Source: an uncultured virus (IMG/VR IMGVR_UViG_3300000301_000027) (taxonomy: Duplodnaviria > Heunggongvirae > Uroviricota > Caudoviricetes > Crassvirales). Taken from it: a stretch of DNA of 64,000 bases. The translations under genes and the position numbers were made by a program. The stretch lies in the IMG/VR virus record IMGVR_UViG_3300000301_000027; one strand, given 5' to 3'. Numbering within the stretch: the first letter of the stretch is position 1; each line of letters opens with the position of its first letter. Below are positions 14,683 through 52,387 of this stretch, in pieces. The notes beneath the pieces are model-generated. The model was given only the letters and a program-made list of their open reading frames with translations, did not search any database and was not told the origin of the DNA.

Positions 14683-14694
14683 AAACAGTATAAT

Positions 14695-28300: not shown

Positions 28301-31300
28301 TACTCCACCTTGAAGTTCTCTAGCTAATCCATCTATAGTACCAATTTTATCTATAACTTTCTTATAATTTTTATCATAATTCCATGCTAAAATATCATCA
28401 AATAAAGAAGCAATATTCTTGCCAGTAAATTTCATATCTTCAATATAAAATTCAGCATCTTCATCTAAGTTAGCAATAATATGTTTTCTAATTTGAGATC
28501 CAAATAGCTGTAATGTATCTCTAAAGTGTTCTGGTGTATCCATCTGATACATGTAATCATCATTACTTAAATAATAATATTTAACATTAGTTTCAGATAA
28601 TTCTCTGGGATCGCCATTAAAATGTAATACAGCATCTGGAAGAATAGGTTTACCTTGTTTTCTTAGTTTATCTTTAAGTTCTTGAGAAGTATTTAATTCA
28701 ATACCTTCTTTTACTGCAGATTCAAAGTAAACAGCATCTATACCATTATCTTCCATTCCTTTAACTAGAGCACTTAATAAAGGACTATTTTGCACCATTT
28801 GAGGAATTAATACTGCTTCAGAGTTTTTATTTTGTAGTGGTTGATATAAAGAAGTGTTTTTACCATTTATATCTACTCCAGAATCTGTAATATGAGGAGC
28901 AAACATATATGGTTTAATAGGTTGTAAAGAGAATGTTAAAATATCTTCTACATTATAAGTACCATTTTTTAGTCTTTGATAAGATGATTCTTTAGCATCA
29001 TCCCATTTAGAATTCATTCTAGCAATATTTCTATATCTATCTAATGTGATAAATGTTTGTCCATCTGTGGCATTATTTAAACCACTATCAATAATTTGAC
29101 CATTAGGTAATTTTACTTTCTTATTTCCTTCTGAGTCTGTATAATTAGAATAACCAAATTTAGAAGCAATAATCATAGCTTCTGTTGTTGATACACCATT
29201 TAATTTAAGATTTTCATAATAAGCATCAGCTACTAATGAAGGAATTTCATTATCTTTCATTCTAATAGCTTTAAACTTCTCTGGTATTCCTAAAGTTTCC
29301 CAATCACCATATTGACCAGGAGACATATTTTGTTTATTTCTTTTAAAGAAGTCTACATCATTTTTATAATAAGCTAAATCTCCAGATGTCATAGTCATAA
29401 TACTATATTGAGCTAAAGTATCATTATAATAAAACTCCTTTAATTTACTCTCAGTTATTCTTTTGTCATATTTAGTACCATCTAGATCAGGATTAGATTT
29501 AAATTTCTTAAATCCCTCTTCCATAGCTTCTTCAATATATTTTCTTAAAGTTGCTTCAGAAGTTTTAAGTTCATCAAGATTATATTTATTTAAAAAAGGA
29601 AACATTAAGAATTTAGATCCCCTTCCATCTTTTTCTTTACCTTGATCATTAATAGTAACATCAAAGTTTTTAATACTATAAAGCTTACCTTGTTTAATAA
29701 GGGCTTTTCTCTTATTATAGACTTCAATTCTTCTAATTTCAGCTTTAGCTAGTTCTACTAAACCATCTACAGAATAACTTAGATCATAAGATTTTACAAA
29801 TCTAATTACTGGCATAGAAGAAGCATCTGATGGAATTGGTAACATGAAATAACCATAATCTCTAGCTCCATTATTAAACCATAAATTAATTTTAGATCCT
29901 AAGAAATCAGGTTTACTTAATTCAGAATATCTAGTTTTATCTTTTTCTAGAAACATAGACACTTGAATCTCACTAGCAAGATCTTTAGTTTTTATATTAT
30001 AAAGTTCTTTTAGCCAAGGATGTGTAAATTTACCTTCATTATTAGTATAAAAGAAACTTTTCTTAAAAGGTTCAAATGCACTTTTATCTTCTACATCTGT
30101 AAGTCTTTTAAACAATTTACCTATAAAAGATGGAGTAATATTTGTAGAATATGTCTTTCCATCTTCTCTTAAAGAAGATTCATATAATGATGGTCTAACA
30201 TTAGATAAAGCTTTACTTAATGCTTTTATTCTAACATTAACAGGTAATAATTCAAGATCATAATAAGTATTTCTTCTTATATCATAATCATCTTTATTTA
30301 TGGTATCATGAAAAGCTCTCAACACTCTAAATGAATTCAATAAGAAATCTTGCATTGGCTGAAAGTTAGAATTATCATCATTTAATCTCATATTAGATTG
30401 AAAAACTTTTACTAGTTCTGATGGTTTACTATCTATTCCTATAGTATTCAACATACCAGAAACTTCTCTAGCCCATGCATTGATTTGTGGATTATTAAAT
30501 TTACCAGATTTCCAATTCTTTTTCCAAAGTCTAACTTTATGAAGTCTAAATGGATTACCTGATACTTCTTGATATATTTTATATATTTTATCTGAATTTT
30601 CCTTTAAAGACTTTACAAGCTCTTCTTTATTATGACTAGCTAAAGAATAATTAGAACTCCATATTCTTAACAATTCTCCTGCTTTATTAACACTATTGCC
30701 TCCAAATACTCTCATAGTACCATCACTTTGAGAGCTAATAATCATATATTCTACAGAATCATTTCTGAATGAATTATAAAAATCTACCTGTAATTTAGGA
30801 TTTGATTTTAAAATATCTATAATAGAATCTACCCAAGGAAAACTTTGACTTAAAGATTCTAAAGTCTTCATTAAATCACTAGGTTTATTCATTGTAGATA
30901 GTTTATTTAACATAGTGGCAAAAACTTCTGTACCACTCATATAAGGTTGATATCCTAAATCATCAGGAGATACTAAAGTACCATCAGAAGTCATTTTAGG
31001 AATTCTTCTAATAATATTCCTAGTGCTTTGTCTTAATTTAGTTACTGGAGATATTAACATTTGATCTATTTGCCATCCTTCTTGTTTAACAACTTCTTCA
31101 TTATTCATAAACTCAGTGTTCTCATCTTGTTGATTCATATCCATATCAACAATTTGTTGAGCTTTAAAAGTAATACCTTCTAATGCAGATATTTCTTTTA
31201 ACATATCTAATGCTAATTGACCAAATTGAGGATTTCCATCAGCATCAAATTGAACAAGTTCATCTGTAATTAAATCAATAGCATCTATTTGAATAGGATC

Positions 31301-34300
31301 TGTATAAATAGCATTATCTCCATGTGCAGAAGCATATAATTGATCATGTATAGTTAAAATATAATCTTCTAAAGAATATTGTTTAATGACATCAACTCTA
31401 CTTAGTTCAGGAGATTCTTGAGCTAAATTATCTATAATATCTTCAAAAGTATCTACTAGCATATCTACTCTTCTTTTATAAATAGAAGGAGTGATATTAG
31501 ATAACCAGTTTCTTTCTACTAGAGGTCTATTCTTTTCAAATTTCTTTTTAGAATATCTTCCTCTATTAATATTATAAAATACTTGTTCTATAGAAGGATT
31601 AAGATGTAATTTATTTTTAATTAAGTAATATATATTTTTAAAGAAATCACTAATTCTATCTAAGATAGATTTATTAGTAATTTGATCTGTTTCTACATAA
31701 TCTCTAAATTTATCTGCTAGAGTTTCTTCTACAGCTACATCAGATTTACCAGTTAAACCAAGTTCTTTTCTAGCTTTTTCTAATAATTTATTAGTTTCTG
31801 ATTCTGTTAAAAACATATTAAACACAGCATGAAAAGCTTCATGGTATGTAGTTCCACTAGCAGCTATATCTGATAGTTCTATAATTCCATCTTTAAATCT
31901 TCCCCAAGCATATAAATTACCCACATTAATTAGACCTCTGTGAATCTCAACTAATTCATTGTCTGTTAATTGAGGTAAATTTTCTTTTAACCAAGATAAT
32001 TCTTTGTTTAAATCAGCTTTTTCATAGTTTAAAGGTTCAGACATTAATCTGTATTTGTCATCATCTTTTCCCCATTCAGCTTTTCTAGATAAGTCAGGTT
32101 TAATAAAGTTTTTACCTTTTAACTTATTAGCTAATTTATTATTAGGACCAGATAAGGGACCTCTTTTTTTAGGAGAATTAGATAATTCTTTTACTGCATC
32201 TACAGTTAAAGTTTGTTCAAAAGATTGTTCTACAGGATCTGTAATTTTTTCTTTTGGTTTAGGTTCTTCTATTTTAGTTTCTTTAGTAGGTTCTTTAACT
32301 TCAGATATAGTTTCTTTTACTGGATTAAGATCTACTAAATTTCTATCATATCCAAATGTTGGAGAATGAAATGGTTCACCTGGAAATATATTCATTTGTA
32401 ATGCATCTGAATTCAATAATTCATTCATTATTTTATTTCCAGATTTATTTAAAAGATTATAAGGAATGTTGATTAAAGATTCTTTTACTCTATTAATAGC
32501 TTCTTCTCTAGAAACAGCTTCAACATCTTCATATTCAGATCCATTATATTTTTGAACCATAAAAGGAAGATCTGCACTATTATTTTTCACTAATCTAATA
32601 ACAACATATTTAGATAGTTCATAAGATCCTTTACTAGAAACTTCAGGATCTGAATCTAATATCTTTTTAAAAGCATTATTAATATTAGTCCTATAATAGT
32701 TATGTAGAGCTGAACCTTGTTGTAAAGTATTATATTTTTGAGTGTAAAGTCTTAATGGAAAATAATCTCCATTAGCACTTTGTACCATAGCAAATAAATG
32801 ACCTGTTCTAAAGTTATCAGCAGGTGGTGTATGAAAATTATTCATATCAACACCAGGAATATTAAAAGTATATCCATTAGTTTCTTTTCCTACAACTATA
32901 CCTAACTTAATATCTTCAACATTATCTACTTGTAAAGCTTCTTTAATTGGATAATAATTATCTCCATCATGTGTAATTATACCATAAGATTTACTAGTTA
33001 TAAAAGAAGATACATTACAAGGGATAACTCTTTTACCATTAATTAATACAGGTTCTCCTTGATAACTAACAGCTTTATTATATAATAATGCTCTTTGTTG
33101 TTTAAGTATATGTATTTCTTGATCTGTAGCTTTCCATTCTCTAGCTTTTTTCTCTCTTCTTAACCAACTAATACCATTATTATTTTCATCATATATTAAA
33201 ATATCAGCATCATCTGCACTATGTTGATATTGAAGAAATTCTTCAGGAATACCAAAGAAAACTTTAGATCCTACATTAGCCACTTCAGGTTTAATAGTTT
33301 CATCAAAACTAATATAAGAATTATATTTTATAGAATCCATTCTATTCTGAGGAATAGTTTTTATTCTTTGATTACCTTGAGAATCTGTATATTTATCATA
33401 ACTATATTTAAAAGATACTAATCTTAAAGGATCATTCTGATTATATTCAGTTTCTACATTATCAGATTGTTGACTATTATCTTCTTGTACTGGAATATTA
33501 TCAGGAATATTTTGTGAAGGAGTAACATCTCCATATTGTTTAGATTCTTGTAATCCTTTTATATAGTCTAAAACTTCATTATAAGCCACAAATTCTTCTC
33601 CTCCTAATAATTGATCATTTATAGGAGTTTTGTTCATTAAAGCTTCTTTAATAAGTTCTGCAGCAACAGGCTCTTCTGTAATATCAAAGAATCTAGCTGC
33701 AAAAGCATTAGCTTGTGATTCTGTAGGATTATCTAGATTAAAATCTCTTAAAAGATCATCTTCAGATTTATATATTTTATTAAAAGCTTCTTTAGACAAA
33801 GCACTTGTTTCTGCAGATTTTTTAGCTTCTTCTCTAGCAGCTAAATAATCATTTAGATTAGAAGCACTATTAATAGATTCTACTATATCATTAACTACTT
33901 CATCTTTACTCCTACTTTTATCAGTAATAATATCATTTGAATCTTGTTGAATAGGACCAAATAATTCTTCATTCATTGTAGCAGTAATAGAATCATCTAT
34001 GTCAAATTCAGTTGTTTCTGATATATTTCCAGATTCTGTATCACTATAATCTAAACCTTCATCATTAGATGCTTTAGAATCTACATCTTGTTCAGGAGAT
34101 TCTGAAGATTTGGGTTTTTTCTTATTAACTTTCTCTTCAGTCTTTTCTTCACTAGTCTTAGTAGTTTGTTCTGAGACTTTCTCTTTAGATTTTGGAGAAG
34201 ATTTTTCTTTAGTAGTTTCTTCAGATTCTGTTTTAAGATTTTGCATTTCTGTAAGAAGATCTATAGAAATCATTCTTTCAGCAAAATTCTTTTCTAGATT

Positions 34301-36145
34301 ATAAGCTATTTCTTCTAATTTAGGATTTCTAGCTATAATATTAGATAAGTCATTCTTTTGAAGAATAAGTTGTTTATTATCTGCTATATGTTTTTTATAA
34401 TGATTTTTAAAATTACTTTCTCCTAAATCTTTAACTCTATTGATAGTATCAATATTTTTTAATACTTCTTGAGCTGCTCTATTTCTTAAAGCAAGTACTA
34501 TACTAGAAGCATCTTCTTTTCCTTCTATAATAGATTGAACAGCAGTATTTAATTCATTATTAAGAGTTTGGTCTAATGCTTGTTGTTTAATACCTTCTTG
34601 TTCAACTAAAGCATATAATGTAGTTGCTTTTTTATTTTTTCTAAAAGCAGGATATTTTTGAAGACTATCAATAGTAGGCTTTATTGCTTTTAATGTTTCT
34701 AAATAATTATTAGCTGTTACTTGATCTTCTCCTTCTAATGTACCTACTCTGTCTTCATACATTTGAATTAATTGATCTAAACTATCAGCTTTTATATGTT
34801 TTCCTAATTGTTCTTCAAATTCATGTTGAGATAAAATTTTAAAAGCATCTGGATTCTTTTGAACAGTAGCTATTTCTTTAGCTGTTCTATATTTATTTAA
34901 TCTATCTAATGCTTTTGTGTATATTTTATTTAAAGTAGGTCCTGCAGCTCTAAATAAACCTCCACCTGCTGCACCTAGTAAGATAGAAGTTTTAAATTCT
35001 ATATCATCAGTATATTTATCCCACCTTTCAGAAAATGATTCTCCTAACATTTTCTTTAATTCAGGGTCACTTAAAGCACTAAACTCAGCTTCTTTTTGAA
35101 TAACATATTGAGTGCCTTCTTCTAATCCTTCAGATACAGCATTCATACCATAATCTGACAGGGTATTAGCAATTCTTTTTAATCTAGAATTAGCATTTTT
35201 AAATGAAGCAAATCCACTTAAAATACTATCAAATTGAAATGCATCTAATAGAAATAAAGGCATATTAGCTTGCATGGTAATAGAAGCAGCTTTACCAGCA
35301 TCTAATCTTAATTGAGCTTCATCATTAACATATTTGTCATCTAATTTGTGAGCTTCAATAAAACTATCATAAGCCTCTTTAGCTTCCATACCAGATTCCA
35401 TAATTCTACTAGTAAGACCTGCACCTATATTAGCTGTAATTCTTGCTGTATTAGCTGCTCCTTTAGCTGTAGCACCAAGTCTCATTCCTAATTTTCCCAA
35501 TCCTTTTCCTACAACACTAAATCCTTTAGCTGCTGCTACTCCTGGAATCATAAGAGATAATGTTGTAGCAATACTTTCAGCATTTCCAGCCCAAAAAGTA
35601 GCATCAAACATAGCTTCCCATAGACTATCAGATTTAGATTGCATAGTTCTATAAATAGGATCAGTAAGATCATTCATAGATTCTTTTAATTTTCTAAATG
35701 TTTTAGAAAATTGATTCTCAAAATCTCCTACAATTTCTTCTCCAAATAAAGCTCTGTATGTATTAGGATTAACTAAATATCCTAATGATTCTAGAGTACC
35801 TGCAGTAATTGCAGATACTCCTCTAACAGCTCCTTTACCTATTAATCCTAGTAATGATTGTTGTTTAGCAAAATAATCTTCTCTTAATTCTGGATTAATT
35901 AAAGATTCATAAGACATATTTGTATCATATCCATCAGCTACATTATATTGAATAGGACTTCCTTGTAGCCAAGATTGAGGTGTTTGATTTTCTTGTGCAG
36001 CTTTTCTATAAATATCCCAGTTAGTTACTCCACTAGAATAAACATATTCTCTACCATTTGGAGAGTTAGGATTATCTATATATTCTCTACCATTCTCATC
36101 TGTTTTTATTTTACCTGTTAAGTTAGGTAACTTATCTTCCTCCAT
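25346..36145 (-). CDS. virion-packaged RNA polymerase polyprotein (~3600 aa) with N-terminal hydrophobic region and central zincin motif
   Basis: GSDFDVDKMY (27806-27820), YRIPTEDKYS, NATDGQTFIT, HEAFH (31829-31843). The DFDxD motif matches crAss-like vRNAPs. Start is ATG at 36145 or 36178. Confidence 0.88.
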   Translation of the reverse strand: MEEDKLPNLTGKIKTDENGREYIDNPNSPNGREYVYSSGVTNWDIYRKAAQENQTPQSWLQGSPIQYNVADGYDTNMSYESLINPELREDYFAKQQSLLGLIGKGAVRGVSAITAGTLESLGYLVNPNTYRALFGEEIVGDFENQFSKTFRKLKESMNDLTDPIYRTMQSKSDSLWEAMFDATFWAGNAESIATTLSLMIPGVAAAKGFSVVGKGLGKLGMRLGATAKGAANTARITANIGAGLTSRIMESGMEAKEAYDSFIEAHKLDDKYVNDEAQLRLDAGKAASITMQANMPLFLLDAFQFDSILSGFASFKNANSRLKRIANTLSDYGMNAVSEGLEEGTQYVIQKEAEFSALSDPELKKMLGESFSERWDKYTDDIEFKTSILLGAAGGGLFRAAGPTLNKIYTKALDRLNKYRTAKEIATVQKNPDAFKILSQHEFEEQLGKHIKADSLDQLIQMYEDRVGTLEGEDQVTANNYLETLKAIKPTIDSLQKYPAFRKNKKATTLYALVEQEGIKQQALDQTLNNELNTAVQSIIEGKEDASSIVLALRNRAAQEVLKNIDTINRVKDLGESNFKNHYKKHIADNKQLILQKNDLSNIIARNPKLEEIAYNLEKNFAERMISIDLLTEMQNLKTESEETTKEKSSPKSKEKVSEQTTKTSEEKTEEKVNKKKPKSSESPEQDVDSKASNDEGLDYSDTESGNISETTEFDIDDSITATMNEELFGPIQQDSNDIITDKSRSKDEVVNDIVESINSASNLNDYLAAREEAKKSAETSALSKEAFNKIYKSEDDLLRDFNLDNPTESQANAFAARFFDITEEPVAAELIKEALMNKTPINDQLLGGEEFVAYNEVLDYIKGLQESKQYGDVTPSQNIPDNIPVQEDNSQQSDNVETEYNQNDPLRLVSFKYSYDKYTDSQGNQRIKTIPQNRMDSIKYNSYISFDETIKPEVANVGSKVFFGIPEEFLQYQHSADDADILIYDENNNGISWLRREKKAREWKATDQEIHILKQQRALLYNKAVSYQGEPVLINGKRVIPCNVSSFITSKSYGIITHDGDNYYPIKEALQVDNVEDIKLGIVVGKETNGYTFNIPGVDMNNFHTPPADNFRTGHLFAMVQSANGDYFPLRLYTQKYNTLQQGSALHNYYRTNINNAFKKILDSDPEVSSKGSYELSKYVVIRLVKNNSADLPFMVQKYNGSEYEDVEAVSREEAINRVKESLINIPYNLLNKSGNKIMNELLNSDALQMNIFPGEPFHSPTFGYDRNLVDLNPVKETISEVKEPTKETKIEEPKPKEKITDPVEQSFEQTLTVDAVKELSNSPKKRGPLSGPNNKLANKLKGKNFIKPDLSRKAEWGKDDDKYRLMSEPLNYEKADLNKELSWLKENLPQLTDNELVEIHRGLINVGNLYAWGRFKDGIIELSDIAASGTTYHEAFHAVFNMFLTESETNKLLEKARKELGLTGKSDVAVEETLADKFRDYVETDQITNKSILDRISDFFKNIYYLIKNKLHLNPSIEQVFYNINRGRYSKKKFEKNRPLVERNWLSNITPSIYKRRVDMLVDTFEDIIDNLAQESPELSRVDVIKQYSLEDYILTIHDQLYASAHGDNAIYTDPIQIDAIDLITDELVQFDADGNPQFGQLALDMLKEISALEGITFKAQQIVDMDMNQQDENTEFMNNEEVVKQEGWQIDQMLISPVTKLRQSTRNIIRRIPKMTSDGTLVSPDDLGYQPYMSGTEVFATMLNKLSTMNKPSDLMKTLESLSQSFPWVDSIIDILKSNPKLQVDFYNSFRNDSVEYMIISSQSDGTMRVFGGNSVNKAGELLRIWSSNYSLASHNKEELVKSLKENSDKIYKIYQEVSGNPFRLHKVRLWKKNWKSGKFNNPQINAWAREVSGMLNTIGIDSKPSELVKVFQSNMRLNDDNSNFQPMQDFLLNSFRVLRAFHDTINKDDYDIRRNTYYDLELLPVNVRIKALSKALSNVRPSLYESSLREDGKTYSTNITPSFIGKLFKRLTDVEDKSAFEPFKKSFFYTNNEGKFTHPWLKELYNIKTKDLASEIQVSMFLEKDKTRYSELSKPDFLGSKINLWFNNGARDYGYFMLPIPSDASSMPVIRFVKSYDLSYSVDGLVELAKAEIRRIEVYNKRKALIKQGKLYSIKNFDVTINDQGKEKDGRGSKFLMFPFLNKYNLDELKTSEATLRKYIEEAMEEGFKKFKSNPDLDGTKYDKRITESKLKEFYYNDTLAQYSIMTMTSGDLAYYKNDVDFFKRNKQNMSPGQYGDWETLGIPEKFKAIRMKDNEIPSLVADAYYENLKLNGVSTTEAMIIASKFGYSNYTDSEGNKKVKLPNGQIIDSGLNNATDGQTFITLDRYRNIARMNSKWDDAKESSYQRLKNGTYNVEDILTFSLQPIKPYMFAPHITDSGVDINGKNTSLYQPLQNKNSEAVLIPQMVQNSPLLSALVKGMEDNGIDAVYFESAVKEGIELNTSQELKDKLRKQGKPILPDAVLHFNGDPRELSETNVKYYYLSNDDYMYQMDTPEHFRDTLQLFGSQIRKHIIANLDEDAEFYIEDMKFTGKNIASLFDDILAWNYDKNYKKVIDKIGTIDGLARELQGGVMQRKFAENTTEAVQLMNYKGEKVFKLPLYFPLQSNRIFQMISSIFRNNIIRNKVSGGALYQVSSYGFDNSLKVHMKDGHIEYVDCIMPYTYSNQLAQLADENGMIDPSKVEDKELLKVICYRIPTEDKYSAVPLRIKGFSSPAEGGIIKLPSDIITITGSDFDVDKMYFLSYAAKYTPARYNLSKIRTWMVNNGLLSDTFSSGNYQEEMNYLSDLLEKYDSGEKLSTEETEAMIEVSKFLKEHQDLIIQKSKLEKIKYNYKQFPEKQSVEASNNALIDIMYSILTSRDAFKTMISGANTSMFADVISTLEKIEKKKSGGDRLFDPGFLTDTYYEYMAGKALTGVFAANSANHSMLQFYNVNLNKKSAITLDGKTVTRISPVKTLDGTNNVTNILGSFLATVVDNAKTLTASKVNLNMFTASTYTLLLRMGFDPKTVMYFMSQPSLRLLSDKVMAKGDMFNYRDSIEEVIKAFSKHTNEQSRFDLIKSGFTQFKQSDLIKAIENYSKSGGDIDLYENAKQILILEAFKDLIEPANTLRSINSAMRSETYGAAPNPGDTIANLAKAKKLSKKTIVSGLGDILTYVSRGEEYEKLMHDPNIKKSLISANTNGVVEYDNFISKYTPFNTRIFTAYRSLLSEAIHDDLTGSEIDELNTIMLNHLTESLDFFKFTKEQKNAWIYKFPVKFLEIVNKDNYLKNINEFTRRLTVQNEFQTTLNGRQSISIIKFSGSRFDNEVAKDEAIRAFEYLWRTPKYTKLAEDLLKYNFVISGWGVTPNSFNHVVPISMINNIPGFNELFRETIFSDNIKVNIDNLIDSYIVNNFRNNRIVPEISKGDNYKFTDKDHSGLTLSHSSSINIKEGSYIKTPYRYIKFNNNGKIELYKLIGATKESAEYQRVSGYGTSTIFEFIEGESSFTSNHLSEKLMKSSELNANLKRHEAQAEIDLVKAMIEGETNTQNNEELDSELSDKLASVSKEAEQIKNHCKGK

Positions 36146-37901
36146 AAGAGGGGTTGAGTTTTCTTTCTCTACTAACATATTTTTGTTCTAGTACTAAAGG
36201 TGTTAATTTTTCTATAACTGAATTAAAAGGTAATCTTTGTTGTTCTGTATATCCTATGATTTGACCTCTATTGTTATATTTGGGCAAACTCATAGTTACC
36301 ATAGCTTCCATACCATTAGGTCCAACAGCTTTTTCCATTTTAATAGGCAATCCAGTGATAGGATCTGTAAAAGTTATTTCACCTCTACTATTATCATAAT
36401 ATTTATTAAATAAAGTATTTGCCACTATAAATTTAGATTGATCTGATTCTACTGGCTTTCTTACTGCTTGATATTTTTTACCATCTTTCATAATAATAAA
36501 TGCAGCCATAGCTCCATTTGCAGCAAAAGCTGTAGAAACTTCTTTTACTTTATTATCATCACTAAATTTAATAGCTTTATGAAAATCTTTTTGATCTTCT
36601 ATAGTTTTACCATCTATATACCAATCTTGAACAGAACCAGGTAAAGAACCTGTTTTTAATTCATCTATATCTTGTTTATATTTTTCTTCATACATTGCTT
36701 TAGGAACATACTTAAATGCAGCAGTAGTTTTATTACTCTTAGCATAATTATCTTCCCATTTAAGAACATCTTCTCTAGTTATATTAGGATTAAGAGTTTT
36801 TAAATATTCATATTCTTGATCTATAATTTGATTTGCATAAGTATTAGCAGCTTCTGCTTCTTCTTTAGTAATATTTTTAGTTCCAAATAATCCTATCATA
36901 CTATATCCTTCTGGATATAATTCTGAAGGATCTCTACCATTTTCATAAGGTTTCATAGTAGCCATTTCTGATAAGTTATCAGAAGCTAGCCAAGGTAATG
37001 ATAATATTTGAGTTTGAGCATCAGCACTCATACCACTAGAACTAATAGACCCATCTTGTAATTTTTTAAATAGTCCAAAATCATAATTAGTTTTATTTTC
37101 TACATCATTTCTATAGAAAGTCAAAGCTCCTTCATTACCTAGCTTATCTAGATCTTCCATGATATTATTAGTTAATCCTAATTGTTGTCTTTCTTTCAAA
37201 TAGGACATTGCTTCAGGATTACTCATTATTCTACTAATTATAGTATTTTTAATTCTTTCTGGAGATAAGGTTACAGTCTTATTAGAAGAATCTGTTATAA
37301 TACCTGTTGAAGGATCATATTTATATCCCAAATCTCTAGCAATAGTTTGAGGAGTAATTTCTTTTCCATATTTACTAACAAGCTCTTGTAAATCTACAGC
37401 TCTAGTAGAATACCATGGAGAATATGTTGCATTAGAACCTGCTCCACCAGATTGATTATATCTTTGTAAAGCAAATGCTAATCCTCTTTCATATTGATCT
37501 CTATTAATTTCTCCTTTTTCTAATCTCTTTTTTTCATCTTCAACATTCTTTAAATATTGTTGATAAGCTTGACTTGCTCTTCCTAAATAACCTCTGCTAG
37601 AGATAGCTTGTTGTTTTTCTTGCAATATCTGTCTAGCTCTTCTAGAAAGATCTTTATTATAACCAGATCTTAATAGTTGATCAGATAGATCATTAATATT
37701 TTCTTTATATTTATCCATCCATTGTTGTACTCCAGGTTTATCTACTTCTAATGCTGGAACATCAAATAAGCCTTCTTGATCTAATAAAGCTTGATATTGA
37801 TCATGTTTTTGTTGCATCATTTGTGGTCCTATAAGCATTTCTTGTAGAGTCATTGGATTATATGTCAATGGTTGAAATTGATCATAGTAGTTAACTGCCA
37901 T
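36132..37901 (-). CDS. virion cargo protein upstream of the vRNAP
   Basis: 589 aa, helical N-terminus (YNPMTLQEML..P). Called by position in the crAss-like layout. Confidence 0.6.
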   Translation of the reverse strand: MAVNYYDQFQPLTYNPMTLQEMLIGPQMMQQKHDQYQALLDQEGLFDVPALEVDKPGVQQWMDKYKENINDLSDQLLRSGYNKDLSRRARQILQEKQQAISSRGYLGRASQAYQQYLKNVEDEKKRLEKGEINRDQYERGLAFALQRYNQSGGAGSNATYSPWYSTRAVDLQELVSKYGKEITPQTIARDLGYKYDPSTGIITDSSNKTVTLSPERIKNTIISRIMSNPEAMSYLKERQQLGLTNNIMEDLDKLGNEGALTFYRNDVENKTNYDFGLFKKLQDGSISSSGMSADAQTQILSLPWLASDNLSEMATMKPYENGRDPSELYPEGYSMIGLFGTKNITKEEAEAANTYANQIIDQEYEYLKTLNPNITREDVLKWEDNYAKSNKTTAAFKYVPKAMYEEKYKQDIDELKTGSLPGSVQDWYIDGKTIEDQKDFHKAIKFSDDNKVKEVSTAFAANGAMAAFIIMKDGKKYQAVRKPVESDQSKFIVANTLFNKYYDNSRGEITFTDPITGLPIKMEKAVGPNGMEAMVTMSLPKYNNRGQIIGYTEQQRLPFNSVIEKLTPLVLEQKYVSRERKLNPSYGGR

Positions 37902-38005: not shown

Positions 38006-41000
38006 TTATGATTTTTTATATTTCACTTGTCCTAGAGCATCTAAATAATAATCCATACCCATAGTTTTAATAGTATTTCTATAAGCTTTTTCTCTACCTA
38101 TACTTCCTAATCCTTGCATAGCTCCAGATAGATAATTTCTAATAGCAGTTCTTCTAGCAGCTCTATTTCTAGCATTTATATCATCAGTCATTGTCTTAGA
38201 AGAAGCATTATATTGTTTAGCTCTAGCTCTCTCTGAAGCATTAAATTGATTAGTTCCTCTATTAAATTCTTTAGCCTGCACTCTTCTTTGTTCATTAACA
38301 GCTTCTGCTTGTAATGCAGCATCTGAAATTGCTTTTTGAGTTTGAGCATTTAAACCTAAGTTAGCAGCTAATATAGCAGCTCTTGAACCACCACTAGCAT
38401 CAGCAAAAGATCTTCTAGCATTAGAAGCTTGATTTAATATAGGATTAGTATATGTATTTGGATCAATAGGATTATATTGTAGATAATCATTTAATTGTTC
38501 TGGTGTAATATATGTAGGATTAACCTTTTCAGCTTTACCTACTGTTGCAGCTCCAATTAAATTACCTAATACTGGAGCATATTGTAGTAATGAACCTAAT
38601 CCTTGTAATTTCATAGCTCTTTCATGTCTCTTATAAGCTTGATAATCTTCAGGACTTAATGTGGCTAATTCTTCTGGTGTTAATTCAAAATCAGAAGTTG
38701 GATTAAAATTAACTTCATTTTCATGAGCAATAGCATTGCCTTCTAAGTCAGCTTCTAATTGATAAGGATCAAATCTTGGACCTGTTAATCCTGTTAAATC
38801 TCCAAAATTATATTTTCTATCCATCATTCTATCAAATTCTTCTTCAGTATCAATAGAAGGAATACTAGTTTTTTTTGTTGTAGAAGTATTAGTTTTAATT
38901 GGCTCAACAGTAGTTTTTTCATCTTCTCCTCCTTTAATAAATGGAGGATTAAAAGTATCCCCATAAGGTTTAGTATTATCAGGCAATATACCATTCCATC
39001 CACCTTTAATATCAGGAACTTTAAACAATTGTCTTTCTGGTGGAATTGGATATATTGGATCTGTTTTCCAATAATTTCCTCTATTAGGATTATCCATTCT
39101 AATATTAGTTTTATTAGATAATCTAGGATCTGAATTTAAATACCATCTACCATTTCTAAAATAAGCTCCATTTCTATTAGGACCAAATAAATCTCCACCT
39201 TTTGCAAATTGCTGTGGTTCTACAGGCATTTCTTGATTTAAAGGCTGTTCTAGCTCATTAGAGACATTTTCTTCTTCAGGCATATCAACTATACCTTGTT
39301 GTTCATCTATGGCTTGTACATCCTCTATTCTAGTCCATTTCTCTTTTAAGAAATTTTCTTCTTCTTCAGTAATAGGTTCATCAATTAATCCTATATGATA
39401 TAATCTAGTATAATAATCTTTATTTTCTGTTAGATGATCTAGAGCTATTTCTCTAGCAGCTTCTATACTATCTGTATGTTCCATTTCAACTTTAATACCT
39501 ACAGATATTTCTAAAGGATCAAATAATTCAGTAGCATTTTCTCTTACTTCTTCAGAAGCTCTACCACCTTTTATTTTTTCTTCTTTAATATTAGAAGCAG
39601 CAATTCTTTTTACTTGTTCATCTGTAACTTCTTTTAGCTCATTGCCTAGATTTTCATCCTCACCTTCTACTTCTTTAATAGAAGGACTAGGTTCCATAGG
39701 TTCTCCATTTAAACTTCCACCTTCAGCAAATGTGTTAGAATCTTCTAAATCTTTTTTCATATTATTTGCTGCTTGTAATCTAATCATCATTTCTTCAAAA
39801 CCTCTTTTACTAATAGGATCATTAGGATGTTCTTCTATATCTTTAGCTAATATTTCACTAGCTTCAGCAAATGTTTTTCCTATTAGATTAGAAGGAAGAT
39901 TTAATTCTTTGACTATATCTTCATCTAAAGTTAATCTATCTGAAAAGATATAATCTTGATATCTAGTTTCTCCTTCTTCAACTAGGTTTACATTTCCATT
40001 ATCACCTATACCTTGTGGTATTCCACCTATAGGAGATTCTTCATGACTACCTCCAGTATTAAAAGAAGTTAAACCACCTTCTGCAAAATATTTTCTGCCC
40101 ATTAAATTNNNNNNNNNNNNNNNNNNNNNNNNNNNNNNNNNNNNNNNNNNNNNNNNNNNNNNNNNNNNNNNNNNNNNNNNNNNNNNNNNNNNNNNNNNTA
40201 ATATTTCCACCATCAGCAAAGCCATATGCTTTTCCCATATAACTTTCTAATGTAGCCATAGTATTTAATCCTCTAGCTTTATTCTTAGCTCTTTTTTCTT
40301 TTCTTTTAGCTTTTTTCTTTCCAAATATAGACTTAATACCTCCAGCTATAGCACCACCTACAGCTCCAACAGCACCACCCACTACAGTTCCTATACCTGG
40401 AACAATAGATCCAACAGTTGCTCCTAATCCTGCACCTGCTCCTACAGAACTTCCTATAGCTTGTTTAGTGTCAAAATCTTTTTTAACTTTAGACACATCT
40501 ATATATGTAGGATCAAAGTTATTCTCTTCATCAACATCAGCTTGTTGATTTTCTCCTTGAGATGTTATTTTTGGAGAAGAAAATAATGTTGATATATTAG
40601 ACACAGTACTTACAGGATCTATGCTTCCTAAGCTAATTCCTTGTTTTGGAATTGTGGGATTAACTGCTTGTTGAGTTAATGTCTCAGGAGCTTGAGCTGT
40701 TAAATTAGGATTAATAATAGATCTAGCTACCATAGGAGATTCTAAAGGTCCTCCATCATATAATTGATTAGTATAATAATCTAATCCTAATAGTTCTCCT
40801 CCATTAGCATGTTTTAAGCTAGGATATTTTTTATATACTTTAGCTTTAATATCACTTCTACCATGTAATCCTGCCAATCTTAAAGCATCTCTAGCATCTG
40901 CTTTAGTTGGAATAGGATAACTTCTATGTTTTCCTGCAAAGTCAGAACTTTTAACTTTAGGATATGGTTTTTTTGAAGATCCATAATCTTTAGATCTACT

Positions 41001-41828
41001 TAAACCTCCTCCATCTTTATATATATTTGTTTGAGGCATATTCCATCCTTTATTTTGTAATTCTAATTCAGTATCTGTTGGAAATATATTATATAAAAAT
41101 TCTGCTTTATTTTGTATTAATTCAGCATTACTAGATTTAGAACTTTGTGCATCATGTAAAGCTTTTGTTATTTCTGCAACAGATGAATTTGGATTGTCAA
41201 ATATTTCTTTATATTTTTTCTTATCTTCTATTCTTGTTAAATATTTATTAACATAGAAATCAGTTTGTGCTAGAATTGGATTTTTATAATTTTTACCTTC
41301 ATCTTTTAACCAATCTTGATACCAATAAGAAGTTGGTTTTTCATTAGAAGGTGTATTGCTAAAATCTCCAACTCCTTCTTCAAAAGAATATAATCCCCTA
41401 TTTACAACTCCACCTTTAGTTCCTTCTTGTATTTTATTAGGATCCCAAACTTTACCTTTTACATATTTATTTCCTCCTTTAGCTGTTTCTTGGTGAGACA
41501 ATGCCATTAAAGCAGCTATTTGTTTTTTACTATATTTATCTTTTAATGCTTCATAAAAAGCTTTAGCATTATCAGCATCTTCTTCTTTAAACATTAAAGT
41601 GGATTTTTCATTTTTAAGATCTCCTAATATATTATGTTCTATTTTATCTATAGAAAAATTTTTTCCTGTAATTAAGGATTTATAATCAGAGAGTTTATTA
41701 ACAAAATCAGGATTATATAATCTTTGAATCATTTCTTTTATTTTGAGATTATTATAAGGAGAATCTTTATCTTTTATCTCATCTCTAAGTCTTTTTATTA
41801 GAATATCTCTTAATTCTTCATTATTCAT
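38006..41828 (-). CDS. modular virion cargo protein (~1270 aa) with Gly-zipper hydrophobic segment and xxxGG repeats; one gene interrupted by an N gap
   Basis: Frames are open on both sides of the gap (YGFADGGNI...NLMGRKYFAEGG) and the same motif recurs on both sides. Contains TGGSHEE..GGIPQG..VEEGET. Confidence 0.7.
40109..40198. other. assembly gap (90 N)
   Basis: Run of N. Confidence 0.99.
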
Positions 41829-44800
41829 TATATAGAATATTTAACATTAATATCATGTAATATAACTTTCCTATTATTATCATTCTTTAATCCTAATTTA
41901 ATAAATTGCCATCCATTTCTCATTCTGATTAAAGATTTTGAATGTCTAGGAATAGGTGTTCTCCATATTCTAAATCTTTCTCTTAAATTATTACCAAATA
42001 TTAATGGAACTTCTTCTGAATTTTGTCTCTCATTCCAAGAATGTATATAATTATATGTTTCATTATACACATCTTTATTCCATTTACTATTTTCTAAAGA
42101 ATAACATTCAGATCTAAATTCTATATTATCATATGTTTTATCTAAATCATAATTCTCATTAGATATAATAGTAATAGAACTATCTTTTAATTCTCCATAA
42201 AAACTATTATAGTCTCCTTCAAATTGAAGATATAAATGTTCTATATTATTTACTATATGATCTGTTAAGAAAGTATCTTTATAATTAATAAATATATTTG
42301 GTGTAATATCCATAAATTCAGTAAAAGCATTAGCAGCTTCACTAAATATTAATGATTCTGTATTTTTAAAATTAAAATATATTTCATCATTATTATTATG
42401 AAAGAAAGAATTAAAATCTTGAGATAAATCTATATTAGACATATAAGAGTGGAATCCATAATTAGTAGAGATATCTTGCATTCCTTCTCCTGTAATCTTG
42501 TTAATAGAACTATTAGTATCATCTATATAATAAATTCCAGTATTAGAAGAACATACACTCCACTTATTAGTAGTTCCAGATTTAGTTGTAATATATCTTT
42601 TATCTGATAAGAATTGTCCTGTTCCTAATTCAATAGGTACTCCATCTGAAGGAGTTAATTGGACTCTAGGATTAATAATAAGATAACTTACAGCAGTATC
42701 TTGAAATCCATACATGAAACTATTAAATTCTTGTAGTTTTCTAATTTCACCATATTGACCATCAAGATCTATAAATTCATTTTGAAGAATATTAGTAGCA
42801 TTATCTATTTTAGATCCTAATGTTTTAGTACTACTAGCAATTATCTTATTGGGAAAATTAGTTTGCACATCTACATCTGAAGGTATTTGAGAATAAGTGA
42901 ACAAATCATTTAACTGGTTATACACTTCATTAAATTTATAATATTGTTCAGGTTGTGTATATTTAATATCAGTTAATTTATCAGAATTATCTATTCTTCT
43001 ATCTAAATCTATAGTAGATTCTACCATAAATGATAACACTTCTGCAACTCCATTTGTAGCTTGTGTATCTGTAATATATGATTTTAAAAGATTAAATCTT
43101 TGTAAATAAATATCTCCTTGATCAGCAATAATATCAACAGGTTTCTGTATAGTACTAGAATATTCTATAGGAACTTCTTTACTACATACTATATATAGAT
43201 TATTGTTATTATCTGTTTCTCCATATTGTCCAGATTCTCCAGTTATCTTTCTACTAAGTTCTATTATAGGAAATTCTTTAGTAGTCCAATTATAGGTTCC
43301 TTTTTCTCCATGCTCTATATCAGAAATAGGAGCATACTTAATATCATTATAGGCTGTAAATACATCATCTATTGCTTTATCTGTATTACTTTGGAAATGA
43401 TAATAAGGTTGAACATTATCATATTCAGGTAATTCTGCTACAGCAGGAAAAACTATATGTTGAGATGTTTTACCATGATATGTTAAAGTTTTAGTAGCAT
43501 CTCTATCAGTATAATGAAGATCTATATCTGAATTATATTTTATAGATTTACCTATATTCTTCATAAATAAATCAACAGTGCCATTATTAGCTCCTCCATA
43601 CTGTTTTTCACTATCAGTTCTCAATAAAGTATATTTATCTGAAGAATCTTTTTTAATAGGATCAAATCCATAATAAGCTCTAAAATAAGAAATTTTATGA
43701 TTATTAGTAGGGCTATCATAAGTAAAAATCAATCCTTCTCCATTACTAAGATAGCCAGGTCTAAGATAAGTTAAAATTCTATCTTCATACCCTGGAATAC
43801 TAGCACTAACAGTTACATTCTTATTATTAGTAGTGTCTAATGTTGTGGAAGATGATAATGTCCATCTATTAGTTGTTATTCCAACCAATTTAACTTCACA
43901 AGAGTTTAAATCTAATTTGGGTTGATCTGGAAAAGATATTTCAGGAGACCACATATTTACAATACTACTATCTCCATAAACACAATAGTTAGGATCAGTA
44001 GTATTTGCTATAATACTTACAGGATTATAAAAAGTTGAATCTTTTGCATCAAATTCTATATTATCATATACATAACTATCAGGTTGACCTAAAGGTCCTA
44101 CAGTTAAATCTGCTTTTCCACATAAAGGTTGAAACACTCCTTTAGCTGGAAATATTGCATGTGTAGGCATTTTACTAGAAGTAGCTACTGTCTTTTTATC
44201 AGGACTATTAATTCCCATATTTCTAGTTAAATAATCAGGCATAGCCCAAAAACCAGTATCTCTTTGAGTTCTTTGAAAGATGGTGGGAGTTAATATCCCC
44301 TGAGATAGTATACTAGAATTTGAAGTATCTCTTTTTACTCTAACTATTCTAGCTCTAACAATACCAAAGTCTTGTACTAGTATTCTACATAAACTTATAG
44401 GAATTGTAAAAGTTACTCTAGAATAATTAGCAGATATGTTAACATTTAATCCATTTTCAATTTCATTAAAAGGAGCTTCTGTGTAAGACTCTAATCCACC
44501 TCTAGGATTAGATTTGATATTATCTTTTCCTCTAGGTATATAAACATCTTTTAGATATATTACTTCTAACCATTGTCCATATTTATCACAAAATTGTATT
44601 CCAAATCTATAAGTTTCCCCTCTTTTAAAAGAAGTTTTAATTTTTCCTTTTTGATCATTTTGATATGGATTATATTTTAAACTGGATTGTATATTACCTT
44701 TCCATGTTTCATTAGCAGCAACTGAAGTGCTATTAACATCTTGAGTGAAATTTTGTTGTTCAGCAGGTAATATTGTATAAGTATCTATAATTTGAGTTTC

Positions 44801-45955
44801 AGCCCCTATACTATATTTAATAAAGTTTGGACTGGCATTAATTAAATCATTATCACTACTTTTATAAGTTCTACTAGTTTTATCAAAATCTAGTTCTTCT
44901 GCTCCTTGAAAATTATATTTACCATTAGGATCTATTAAATCTTGTAGATTATTATGTTCTTCTTTATAATTAGCAAATATTAATCTGTTTGAATGTTGAG
45001 CAATACAATTAGGAATTAAAAAATCTGATCCTAAAAAAGATAATTGTTCTAATGACACATCTTCTAGTGATACTAAACCATTATCTTTATAATTCAATAC
45101 TAGATTTCCTGTAGGAACTTTAGTATTTCCATCTTTAATATATTCATCCTCTAATTTACCATCATATATAAGGCTAATCTTAGGAAGACTATTATATTCA
45201 GTTCTATGTATTCTATATAATTTTATATTAGAAAATCCTTGTTTAGGAATTCCTCCTACTGTTATATCAAAAGCTACAGGAACATTAGTATCTTTTTCAT
45301 ATCCTTTACCTGTACTAGTAATAGCATATAATTCACTTAAACCACTAAGTTTAGATTGAGCTCCATATTTTCTATATAAATTATAACCATATTGAATCAT
45401 TCCTGCTTTAAATAAACCTCCAGTAGTTTGGCTAACTTCAATATTACCATAGCCAATTTCAGGAACAAAATCTATAACACTAATATCATTCTCAGCTCCA
45501 TCTGCTATATTTACATATCTAGGTTGATTTAAACCATCTATCCAATATACTTTTATAATAGAATCAGATTCATACCATCCTATAGTTTCTATCTTATGTT
45601 GAATATTAAAATTCATATTTCCTTCTAAGATAGTAATCATTTGATTAGTTTCTGTATCTATTCTATAAATTCTATCAATAACTGGATTCTCTTGATGTGT
45701 AAATAATACTATATAGTTTTTAACTTCACAATGTCCTAATATGATTCCTTTAATTGCTAAAGTATTTCCTTTGTCATCTGTTACAATATATTCTTTATTA
45801 CCTTTCTCATTAGTTACAGCAAAAGTAGTTTGACTGTCTGTAGCTAATAGTCTGGCATTTCTTATCTCATAAGCATATTCATTGCTAAACTTAGATTTTG
45901 AGATATCTTGATTAATTCCCTTAATCAAATGTTTTTCAATCTTAGGTATTCCCAT
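41828..45955 (-). CDS. tail stabilisation/muzzle protein (P22 gp10-like)
   Basis: 1375 aa; KGINQDISK, TNEKGN, VYWIDGLNQPR, SFKRGETYRFGI, LDGQYGEI. Size and position are typical of crAss-like phages. Confidence 0.75.
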   Translation of the reverse strand: MGIPKIEKHLIKGINQDISKSKFSNEYAYEIRNARLLATDSQTTFAVTNEKGNKEYIVTDDKGNTLAIKGIILGHCEVKNYIVLFTHQENPVIDRIYRIDTETNQMITILEGNMNFNIQHKIETIGWYESDSIIKVYWIDGLNQPRYVNIADGAENDISVIDFVPEIGYGNIEVSQTTGGLFKAGMIQYGYNLYRKYGAQSKLSGLSELYAITSTGKGYEKDTNVPVAFDITVGGIPKQGFSNIKLYRIHRTEYNSLPKISLIYDGKLEDEYIKDGNTKVPTGNLVLNYKDNGLVSLEDVSLEQLSFLGSDFLIPNCIAQHSNRLIFANYKEEHNNLQDLIDPNGKYNFQGAEELDFDKTSRTYKSSDNDLINASPNFIKYSIGAETQIIDTYTILPAEQQNFTQDVNSTSVAANETWKGNIQSSLKYNPYQNDQKGKIKTSFKRGETYRFGIQFCDKYGQWLEVIYLKDVYIPRGKDNIKSNPRGGLESYTEAPFNEIENGLNVNISANYSRVTFTIPISLCRILVQDFGIVRARIVRVKRDTSNSSILSQGILTPTIFQRTQRDTGFWAMPDYLTRNMGINSPDKKTVATSSKMPTHAIFPAKGVFQPLCGKADLTVGPLGQPDSYVYDNIEFDAKDSTFYNPVSIIANTTDPNYCVYGDSSIVNMWSPEISFPDQPKLDLNSCEVKLVGITTNRWTLSSSTTLDTTNNKNVTVSASIPGYEDRILTYLRPGYLSNGEGLIFTYDSPTNNHKISYFRAYYGFDPIKKDSSDKYTLLRTDSEKQYGGANNGTVDLFMKNIGKSIKYNSDIDLHYTDRDATKTLTYHGKTSQHIVFPAVAELPEYDNVQPYYHFQSNTDKAIDDVFTAYNDIKYAPISDIEHGEKGTYNWTTKEFPIIELSRKITGESGQYGETDNNNNLYIVCSKEVPIEYSSTIQKPVDIIADQGDIYLQRFNLLKSYITDTQATNGVAEVLSFMVESTIDLDRRIDNSDKLTDIKYTQPEQYYKFNEVYNQLNDLFTYSQIPSDVDVQTNFPNKIIASSTKTLGSKIDNATNILQNEFIDLDGQYGEIRKLQEFNSFMYGFQDTAVSYLIINPRVQLTPSDGVPIELGTGQFLSDKRYITTKSGTTNKWSVCSSNTGIYYIDDTNSSINKITGEGMQDISTNYGFHSYMSNIDLSQDFNSFFHNNNDEIYFNFKNTESLIFSEAANAFTEFMDITPNIFINYKDTFLTDHIVNNIEHLYLQFEGDYNSFYGELKDSSITIISNENYDLDKTYDNIEFRSECYSLENSKWNKDVYNETYNYIHSWNERQNSEEVPLIFGNNLRERFRIWRTPIPRHSKSLIRMRNGWQFIKLGLKNDNNRKVILHDINVKYSI

Positions 45956-51934: not shown

Positions 51935-52387
51935 TTATAGCTTTCCATAATATTTTATAAAAGCAAAGCCTTTTCTATGATCTAAATAGTCCTCTATTTC
52001 TTCATTTTCACATGCTTCTATCTCAAAGGCAGATGCTTTATAAGCTTTGTGATTAATTTTTGATATATCAAATTTTTCTTTTTTGATTAATGTTTTAAAT
52101 ATATTATATATTAAAGATATTAAATATTCTACTCCATATATAATATAATACATTAAAAAATAGATAGGTAACCACCACCAACTATAAAATATACATAATA
52201 CAGCAAATGGAATTAAGAAAGCTATAATACACTCTTTATATTGTTCACAGTGAATTAATTCATGCCTTAGAGATGAAGGCATTAAACTTTCTTTCTTTGT
52301 AAAAATGTAGCCAAACAACATAATTGTACTATATCCTTTAAATAAGATTGTTTTAGCTAATTTACTATTATAAAATACTTTACTCAT
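51935..52387 (-). CDS. small membrane protein with HExxH motif (putative metallopeptidase)
   Basis: LRHELIHCEQ, a hydrophobic hairpin, then FEIEA (candidate third ligand). Confidence 0.65.
   Translation of the reverse strand: MSKVFYNSKLAKTILFKGYSTIMLFGYIFTKKESLMPSSLRHELIHCEQYKECIIAFLIPFAVLCIFYSWWWLPIYFLMYYIIYGVEYLISLIYNIFKTLIKKEKFDISKINHKAYKASAFEIEACENEEIEDYLDHRKGFAFIKYYGKL

Follow-up and report, generated by a model that had tools for sequence, protein, structure and literature searches.

The phages reported as most abundant in the human gut are the crassviruses, and how some 5.5 MDa of protein is stored in and ejected from their particles is described as unsolved (PMC10172136); their ejection proteins are also listed as an open problem in work on phage N4 (PMC13434306). 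The closest described system is gp45, cargo protein 1 of PhicrAss001, which is represented by PDB entries 7QOG, 7QOI, 7QOJ, 7QOL and 8CKB (Bayfield et al. 2023, PMC10172136). According to the part of that report available to us, residues 425-552 of gp45 bind the portal wing inside the capsid and residues 214-245 line the tail barrel, twelve copies each; these two segments and one unassigned 14-residue helix are the ordered parts of the protein, which is proposed to leave the particle first and to help form a channel. Here, we describe a homologue of gp45 encoded on the minus strand of a 64,000-nucleotide stretch of DNA (the window) from an uncultured crassvirus, IMG/VR record IMGVR_UViG_3300000301_000027. 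The gene is an enlarged new member of the cargo protein 1 (C1) family, and a short motif ending in Gly-Gly, which we call the seam, recurs along its product at the borders of the modules. The seam is found throughout the family, and it marks places at which related phages have exchanged modules. Presence in the virion and binding to portal and tail barrel are known for PhicrAss001 gp45 only (PMC10172136), and the sequence of C1 in the window supports the view that it, too, would be a virion cargo protein composed of unrelated modules.

In the window, C1 is represented by two long open reading frame (ORF) pieces (38006..40225 and 40059..41828); a run of 90 N lies where they join, and they are out of frame across it. 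A preliminary description of the window, prepared from the letters alone, had treated the two as one protein with a gap still to be closed, and alignment to L005, a viral contig of 95-97% nucleotide identity, closes it. Window position 40199 corresponds to L005 position 9998 and window position 40108 to L005 position 10001; therefore, the run stands for 2 nt. The L005 orthologue is a single uninterrupted ORF of 1244 aa, and P0004, the representative of a 99%-identical cluster, reads '...FADGGNINNLMGRKYFAEGG...' across the junction, including GGNINNLMGRK. The translated parts on the two sides of the gap, P0001 (N part, 543 aa) and P0002 (C part, 700 aa), provide 1243 residues together. The Pfam family crAss_CARG1 (PF25725) matches residues 11-123 of the C part with 124 bits against a gathering cut-off of 27 (E 5.7e-36), and the only solved relative, gp45 (7qog_M), is matched by phmmer in four blocks, namely the basic module (E 5.5e-30), the Gly-zipper (E 0.046), the portal-binding domain (E 5.6e-22) and the C-terminal domain (E 9.7e-11).

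C1 and gp45 are therefore alike in these four parts and in their place in the genome, and gp45 carries the same motif, as FDTGG, SAYGG, FAEGG, KAFGG, NAFGG, FINEGG and FAYGG. However, C1 in the window is larger (~1244 aa versus 842 aa), and the lysozyme-fold domain at its N-terminus and its DUF5661 domain have no counterpart in gp45, whereas gp45 has a basic N-terminal leader and a small module, 'F', that are missing here. The order of modules also differs, as the Gly-zipper follows the basic module in the window and precedes it in gp45.

The preliminary description had picked out eight pentapeptides of the form (F/Y/H/L)xxGG in C1. All eight are present on the minus strand where it placed them, and a ninth, FIKGG, had been overlooked (Table 1). 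It had further remarked that L or I tends to follow within two residues, which is so for seven of the nine, the exceptions being FNTGG-SH and FIKGG-ED. With 8.3% Gly and a Gly-zipper in the protein, the motif might be suspected of being a composition effect of a Gly-rich, low-complexity sequence. However, shuffles of the 1243 residues that preserve composition yield 1.35 +/- 1.15 copies of [FYHLW]xxGG against the nine observed, and 0/5000 reach nine. The narrower pattern F[AN]xGG is observed five times against 0.04 expected (0/5000 shuffles), and the GG dipeptide 19 times against 8.5 +/- 2.7 (0/2000 shuffles). The motifs also lie outside the Gly-zipper and are in sevenfold excess across the family. 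A composition effect is thus refuted, and we give it practically no chance. Within the window, 7/12 copies of [FY]xxGG are located in the C1 gene, with five in the other 44 ORFs combined.

A search with the CARG1 part against 1.84 billion representatives returned 2610 proteins at E <= 0.001, and the family counts given here refer to the best 150 of these 2610. They contain 550 copies of [FYW]xxGG as compared with 76.6 +/- 8.8 in shuffles, indicating that the seam motif is real and family-wide. The family consensus, Phi-A-x-G-G-x-Phi, is longer than the five residues originally noted. Numbering the second Gly as P1, F is found at P5 at 7.4x background and A at P4 at 3.4x, P2' is L, I, M or F in 312/429 copies, and P1' is Pro in 26/429. 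Several copies occupy fixed places in the family alignment: two just before CARG1, FNxGGSHE in the first strand region and FAxGGxL right after the domain, where the GG column is at least 90% conserved. In addition, 54/150 proteins open with a basic leader of 10-25 residues ending in the motif, as gp45 does (MAKKKIKRRGKMPPNIFDTGG), and 21/150 have a copy among their last 25 residues, in most cases with a short basic tail after it. The possibility that the motif travels with DUF5661 was ruled out, because 41/46 DUF5661 ORFs in other phages are without it, indicating that the motif is a property of the C1 string and not of the modules inserted into it. A full-text literature search found no mention of the seam motif or of C1 processing.

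Also proposed in the preliminary description was that the motifs fall at the borders of compositionally distinct blocks, and structure models bear this out, as the copies outside the CARG1 arm sit in linkers with a low predicted local distance difference test (pLDDT) score beside confidently modelled domains. YKDGGG occupies residues 270-275 of the N-terminal model, in which pLDDT is below 50 at 265-275. In the C part, FAEGG (127-131) stands at the end of a helix, and FAKGG (301-305) and FIKGG (390-394) are inside stretches of pLDDT <50, at 272-315 and 325-420, respectively. At the CARG1 arm, which is formed by FAEGG and FNTGG, pLDDT is 90 from residue 11 onward, and in P0004 the Pfam CARG1 model begins already at FADGG, at profile position 2.

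The blocks themselves largely correspond to what had been proposed from the letters. A lysozyme-like block had been suspected at the N-terminus, and an AlphaFold2 (AF2) model of the first 275 residues built with seven relatives (pLDDT 79, predicted template modelling score 0.82) confirms it by fold, as a helical bundle followed by a lysozyme fold. Residues 80-250 of the model align by VIA-align with residues 10-159 of phi29 gp13 (3csq_A) at Z 11.8, with 142 residues aligned at a root mean square deviation (rmsd) of 3.4. The next matches are muramidases and lytic transglycosylases at Z 7-9, and 28 further chains reach Z >= 5, those listed being mainly muramidases, lytic transglycosylases, endolysins and chitinases. 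Foldseek likewise puts phi29 gp13 first, weakly (E 0.36), Pfam Phage_lysozyme2 is a weak match (E 0.23), and a profile search of the domain against PDB sequences gave no matches. E114-T115 and G145-L146-x-S148 are invariant in the seven relatives. We conclude that the N-terminal domain is, by its model, a lysozyme fold with putative wall-cutting function, its activity being predicted. The basic block of ~65 aa is a homologue of gp45 255-336, with a weak lead to DUF6582 (score 0.81) in an Atlas search, and the Gly-zipper block is matched weakly by Pfam and by gp45 114-182; families of tail lysins and tape measures are its PHROG matches (E 8e-7 to 3e-3). The block recognized by GGSHEE and VEEGET is crAss_CARG1. 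An alignment of 100 sequences was used to model the C part with AlphaFold, and in this model the domain has a pLDDT of 88-98 and is matched by Foldseek to 7qog_M with E 6.8e-7, probability 1.00, TM(target) 0.75 and rmsd 2.5 over 119 columns at 43% identity. DUF5661, to which a resemblance had been suggested, is indeed detected (PF18905, 35.6 bits against a gathering cut-off of 27, E 1.2e-8), and the part described as coiled at the C-terminus is the homologue of gp45 650-806, with a long helix in the model.

The module structure can be followed between phages. The C1 proteins of 13 close relatives, the window and gp45 were split at the motifs and the pieces clustered into a module map. The first slot holds a lysozyme-fold module of 266-282 aa, or a 21-aa leader (L006, L007), or is empty (L011-L013). 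Between the first two seams, the window, L005, L006 and L007 have the 69-aa basic module 'H', and L002-L004, L008-L010 and L014 have the unrelated 55-aa module 'F'; gp45 carries both small modules in tandem, preceded by the Gly-zipper. At one and the same site the P3 residue varies freely, as seen in FAKGG, FALGG, FAFGG, FAEGG, FASGG and FADGG. At the DNA level, homology of L010 to the window stops at 41016, inside YKDGG, and that of L006 and L007 resumes at 41043, 22 nt before YKDGG. Homology of L002, L003, L008, L009, L010 and L014 resumes at 40814, the codon before HANGG, and that of L008, L009, L010 and L014 ends at 39188-39203, at FAKGG. Breakpoints at 38778 and 41379 fall off any motif. 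Among 76 C1 genes from 80 viral contigs, 103/327 distinct internal breakpoints lie within 6 nt of a motif, compared with 7.0 +/- 1.3% for 200 random placements, none of which exceeds 10.4%; in this count, related genes make the breakpoints non-independent events, and a block end may mark where a conserved domain stops and not only recombination. Gain, loss or replacement of modules at the xxxGG motifs, as the preliminary description had anticipated for orthologues, is therefore observed, for instance at YKDGG, HANGG and FAKGG. At the protein level, the ends of BLAST blocks peak strongly at the motif when CARG1 is included.

Exchange at the seams would also be expected if the motif had no partner and were a passive linker 'standard', that is, a scar of module shuffling at places where recombination is viable or is favoured by microhomology. 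Breakpoints on the motif codons, the different order of modules in gp45 and in C1 here, and the freedom of P3 at a given site are all in keeping with this. However, conservation is at the level of the protein, with the Gly (GGA, GGT) and Ala codons varying between copies, and a stretch of 15 nt offers little length for homologous exchange. Bias extends over seven positions, P5, P4 and P2' among them, and the motif is also present at the extreme N-terminus after the leader and near the C-terminus, where nothing is joined. Given in addition the conserved GG column after CARG1, we consider a purely passive linker unlikely.

The idea that variable effector domains are plugged into an ejected protein also holds up, as relatives place different cell-wall enzymes at different positions. 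In 56 long representatives, Pfam detects Phage_lysozyme2, SLT_3, Glucosaminidase, Phage_lysozyme, YkuD, PG_binding_1 and DUF5661, standing before or after CARG1. In relatives, at least six kinds of cell-wall-active domain are carried on the same C1 scaffold. Accessory enzymes are not always bracketed by motifs: in P0013, for example, the Lys2 domain is at 474-601 and the motifs are only at 237 and 856. Genomic loci for representative P0071 were sought and none were found. Some C1 genes appeared to be split: the gene seemed to open at the motif ahead of CARG1 ('MANFSANGGDLFAYGG…'), and an ORF of its own, upstream, held the Gly-zipper part. Such natural splits were considered as a sign that modules can work apart and were rejected, as the 'stops' are in-frame TGA (L102, L116, L124, L128) or TAG (L159). 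In these five contigs, C1 and the neighbouring late genes are broken by one kind of in-frame stop each. Crassviruses recode stop codons, and we read these in-frame stops as recoding, by which calls under the standard code would split C1 into false fragments.

Our preferred reading, which we put forward tentatively, is that the seam may be an uncut junction or handle and not a cutting site. C1 would be stored in the particle with its CARG1 domain as the anchor on the portal, and would leave before the DNA does. From the N-terminus, its exchangeable modules are the helical bundle with the lysozyme-fold domain, the basic module, the Gly-zipper segment (putatively membrane-inserting), the portal-binding domain, the DUF5661 domain, the variable module and the conserved helical C-terminus. 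At each seam, the Gly-Gly would end one structural element and the flanking hydrophobic residues would cap or start the neighbouring ones, so that each module could fold, unfold and thread through the portal and tail independently. At least some copies would double as handles, like the three tandem copies of the CARG1 arm, which are ordered on the portal in the solved relative. With one and the same seam at the end of every module, recombination at seams would leave a functional protein, which would explain why related phages differ by whole modules exactly there. What the analysis shows is the identity of C1, its architecture, the conservation of the seam across the family, its place in linkers and the exchange of modules there; that the seam works as a hinge or handle and is left uncut is what we infer.

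The preliminary description had taken the di-Gly motif as either a protease cleavage site or a capsid-loading tag, and of the two the tag fits somewhat better. In the PhicrAss001 virion, gp45 425-552 ('AFGGWLNTQGGDFTNGVTFINEGGSHEE…') is one modelled chain across AFGG-W, TQGG-D and NEGG-S, as far as the available part of the structural report shows. These three copies, and the statement concerns these three only, are not cut in the mature particle. Cleavage elsewhere is nevertheless possible, though it is not what we expect: CARG1 would load all modules, after which a protease would cleave C1 behind Gly-Gly or one residue further on, either as the particle matures or once C1 has left it. Candidates for the protease are an unrecognised phage enzyme, the HExxH domain of a co-packaged giant protein and a host enzyme, and the products would be separate tail-resident, portal-bound and free polypeptides. 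As such sites would, the seams form a conserved linear peptide within disordered linkers, and they do so on both sides of modules; the leader ending in the motif in 54/150 relatives is another point in favour. Relatives without the first module start right after the seam, with 'MSDIHIKP…' as compared with 'FENGG-KMSIHIKP…'. In addition, part of gp45 is in the tail, which has room for only approximately residues 1-245 of 12 copies, and another part is in the capsid (PMC10172136, in the portion available). On the other hand, the motif is missing from other virion proteins: gp45 has seven motifs, and the portal, capsid, gp46, gp49 and gp50 of PhicrAss001 have no [FY]xxGG. Accessory enzymes in relatives often lack flanking motifs, and Pro at P1' suits Gly-Gly-specific cysteine proteases poorly.

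No clear cognate enzyme was identified. Pfam detects no endopeptidase family in 42 window ORFs or in the 44 other ORFs of G002, a complete 101-kb relative that is 95-99% identical, many ORFs being without any family. The only match named as a peptidase is Peptidase_C26/GATase, of gamma-glutamyl hydrolase type, at 2312-2965 in an amidoligase cluster. HExxH is present in two window ORFs, a giant ORF of 3610 aa and an ORF of 150 aa. The giant ORF has a single HExxH (HEAFH at residue 1446), no [FY]xxGG and no Pfam match. Its HEAFH makes it a candidate. The available part of a preprint (Drobysheva et al.) expects fused crassviral cargo proteins to be cleaved and describes a zincin-like domain. However, it is itself a putative polyprotein without [FY]xxGG, so that any processing of it would use other sites. 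The 150-aa ORF (51935-52387, minus strand), which the preliminary description had listed among candidate proteases, has HELIH at residue 42 and long hydrophobic stretches, and is without a Pfam family. ThiF/JAB pairs handle Gly-Gly ends, and PhicrAss001 has such a pair in gp76-gp77 (L082, 81394-83792), with ThiF at E 8e-16 beside Prok-JAB at E 4.9e-4, the latter below cut-off. As the protease of the seams this pair was rejected, as both families are absent from 5/5 close-relative records, three of which are at least 99% complete. PhicrAss001 gp66 (73492-74007) is a small retropepsin-like aspartyl protease (E 8.8e-7). A double-glycine leader system is not indicated either, as C1 here starts with a helical bundle and has no leader, and Pfam scans of the window and G002 contain no Peptidase_C39.

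Published mass spectrometry of PhicrAss001 was used to look for gp45 and its possible fragments. Peak lists from matrix-assisted laser desorption/ionization of 13 gel bands (PMC6235969) were matched to the tryptic masses of 46 proteins and of shuffled decoys. The muzzle, gp50/gp47, gp49, portal, gp26/gp22/gp25, gp23, capsid, gp36 and gp29 were recovered, with for example 12 peptide-mass matches versus 3.1 in decoys for the portal, 35 versus 2.2 for the capsid and 47 versus 8.7 for gp49. By contrast, gp45 had 0-4 matches per band, never above decoys (0.1-4.3), neither as the intact protein of ~91 kDa nor as a fragment. No intact gp45 is seen in bands 5-9 (portal, gp26, gp22, gp25 and gp23 by mass match; band sizes are not in the data), as cleavage would predict, but there are no gp45 fragments among the bands either. 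The gel-band result is therefore uninformative on size, and is at most a weak hint against abundant intact gp45. The mass spectrometry of 2023 comes from one excised band without size information (PMC10172136, as far as available). The motif and processing of gp45 are not mentioned in the available part of that report, cleavage is mentioned in neither of the two PhicrAss001 papers, and what appear to be replies to reviewers in the 2023 supplement contain no statement about processing.

Several observations weigh against an uncut junction or handle. Full-length gp45 was undetected in all 13 bands, although the portal, of equal copy number and similar mass, was detected. The handle role comes from one sentence in the available text of the structural report, that the segments interdigitate with the portal wing loops, together with position in the sequence. 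Beyond the CARG1 arm, the PhicrAss001 maps resolve no copy of the motif (PMC10172136, in the part available), and hence these copies have no stable dock on a symmetric surface of the mature particle. Some partner is needed by a linear motif that is conserved within a disordered region, and a protease is one candidate; a plain hinge leaves the conserved aromatic, the Ala and the P2' hydrophobic residue unexplained. The basic leader that ends in the motif looks like a removable propeptide. Judging from the published dimensions in the portion of the report available, twelve 179-residue gp45 chains would, if intact, have to span 420 A through the portal, which would be tight if the basic module, which is very well conserved, folds. 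Lastly, with CARG1 excluded, only the right-hand ends of protein blocks are enriched at the motif (9-12% within 3 residues versus 3%), and the left-hand ends are without enrichment. A protease from the particle or the host, such as the HExxH domain of the giant protein, might cut the seams at a late stage of assembly or as C1 is ejected, before the conserved hydrophobic residue that follows Gly-Gly-x, but we regard this as doubtful. Were it the case, it would account for ordered gp45 in the tail as well as in the capsid, and C1 would be the first Gly-Gly-processed phage cargo polyprotein, with the seam as a plug-in standard for injected effectors.

C1 may also be compared with ejection proteins of podophages. 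Like it, N4 gp51/gp52 (PMC13434306) and T7 gp14-16 (PMC10172136) are stored in the particle, in part inside the tail and in part around the portal, leave before the DNA and are expected to bridge the cell envelope; however, no sequence relation to them was found, and the available parts of the N4 and T7 literature report no repeated seam motif. Similarly, phi29 gp13 (PDB 3CSQ/3CSR) is the best fold match of the N-terminal domain and a virion-borne wall hydrolase, but identity is 15-17% and gp13 sits at the tail tip, whereas C1 is an internal cargo thread. A wall-cutting domain in such a protein parallels T7 gp16. Among viruses whose polyproteins are cut after Gly-Gly are those with the adenovirus protease and the African swine fever virus pS273R protease, and internal proteins of phages are cut by head proteases such as T4 gp21 and phiKZ gp175. 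The seam resembles the signals of both groups in being short, linear and ending in small residues at module borders. It differs from both in that no cognate protease was found here, other virion proteins do not have the sites, and three copies are intact in the PhicrAss001 structure.

The seam provides a simple, testable grammar of the main cargo thread, in that it marks where modules start and end, where evolution swaps them and which residues to mutate or to seek in proteomes. It is also a natural pointer to where foreign modules could be added to a protein that a phage delivers.

Table 1. Location of the seams, the modules of C1 and the adjoining genes in the window.
Feature	Position	Strand	Basis
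Cargo protein 1 gene (C1, gp45 homologue), ~1244 aa	38006..41828	-	ORF pieces, Pfam, PDB gp45 matches, contiguous L005 orthologue
Run of 90 N standing for 2 nt, one codon completed	40109..40198	.	L005 alignment, P0004 reading
N-terminal helical bundle (residues 1-75) and lysozyme-fold domain (~80-250; predicted)	41037..41828	-	AF2, VIA-align
YKDGG(G) seam, between lysozyme domain and basic module	41007..41021	-	Motif scan; pLDDT drop, breakpoints
Basic module 'H' (…RSYPIPTKADARDALRLAGLHG…)	40812..41003	-	gp45 255-336, E 5.5e-30; module map
HANGG seam	40797..40811	-	Motif scan; breakpoint 40814
LYDGG(PLE) seam	40749..40763	-	Counterpart of gp45 SAYGG-PLEF, just before tail-barrel-bound helix 214-245
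Gly-zipper hydrophobic segment, then Lys/Arg-rich stretch; putative membrane-inserting	40314..40466	-	Weak Pfam Gly-zipper_Omp, YidB; gp45 114-182
FADGG seam, first of three tandem motifs into portal-binding domain	40206..40220	-	Motif scan
FAEGG (40073-40087) and FNTGG (40049-40063), N-terminal arm of CARG1	40049..40087	-	gp45 439-448 alignment, within modelled 425-552
crAss_CARG1 portal-binding domain	39731..40078	-	Pfam; Foldseek to 7qog_M
FAEGG seam, caps last CARG1 helix, then disordered linker	39716..39730	-	Helix 98-128, pLDDT <50 at 127-155
Acidic helical domain containing DUF5661	39296..39631	-	Pfam DUF5661 at residues 202-237; pLDDT 82-96 for 160-271
FAKGG seam	39194..39208	-	GG column >= 90% conserved in family alignment; breakpoints 39188-39203
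Variable module, without confident fold	38942..39193	-	pLDDT 34-45; unrelated sequence in L008, L009, L010, P0004
FIKGG seam	38927..38941	-	Motif scan
Conserved helical C-terminal domain, long helix 576-682	38009..38764	-	gp45 650-806, E 9.7e-11; pLDDT 85-97
Muzzle protein gene, directly upstream	41828..45955	-	Pfam crAss_MUZ, E 5.9e-203
Positional counterpart of cargo protein 2, 589 aa, ends …NPSYGGR	36132..37901	-	Gene order; weak gp46 similarity, E 0.038
Giant 3610-aa ORF in place of RNA-polymerase-associated cargo genes	25346..36178	-	Gene order only, without family match

The neighbourhood of C1 agrees with its assignment, as the order of ring proteins, muzzle, C1, an ORF of 589 aa in the place of cargo protein 2 (C2) and the giant ORF in the place of the three cargo genes associated with the virion RNA polymerase is the same in PhicrAss001. 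The first 47 nt of the giant ORF are shared with the end of the C2-like gene. The seam-like YGG at the C-terminus of the C2-like protein (…SYGGR) is also present in L006, L008 and L010, and is absent in L002, L005, L011, L013, L014 and PhicrAss001 gp46.

Elsewhere in the window, the plus-strand region 1093-9312 encodes GGACT (E 1.1e-17), Peptidase_C26/GATase, a weak ATP-grasp R2K, a phiEco32-like COOH-NH2 ligase, GATase_6 and Amidoligase_2, a cluster that we take to resemble the phage peptide-ligase/amidoligase clusters predicted to tag or modify proteins. Two further runs of N, at 13131-13218 (88 N) and 22192-22282 (91 N), replace ~5 and ~9 nt in G002, and the ORFs that they interrupt (11252..13878 region; 22185..25298) are probably intact genes. 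In G002 itself, within 80001-100000 (L087), the major capsid gene at 5056-7434 (minus strand) is in two pieces around a GIY-YIG ORF. A 1769-aa ORF at 11466-16775 (minus strand) of L087, beside the portal gene, contains intein, LAGLIDADG and homing-endonuclease domains and has no terminase family match; we take it from its position to be a candidate terminase gene. Both the capsid gene and this ORF look like sites of selfish elements in essential genes.

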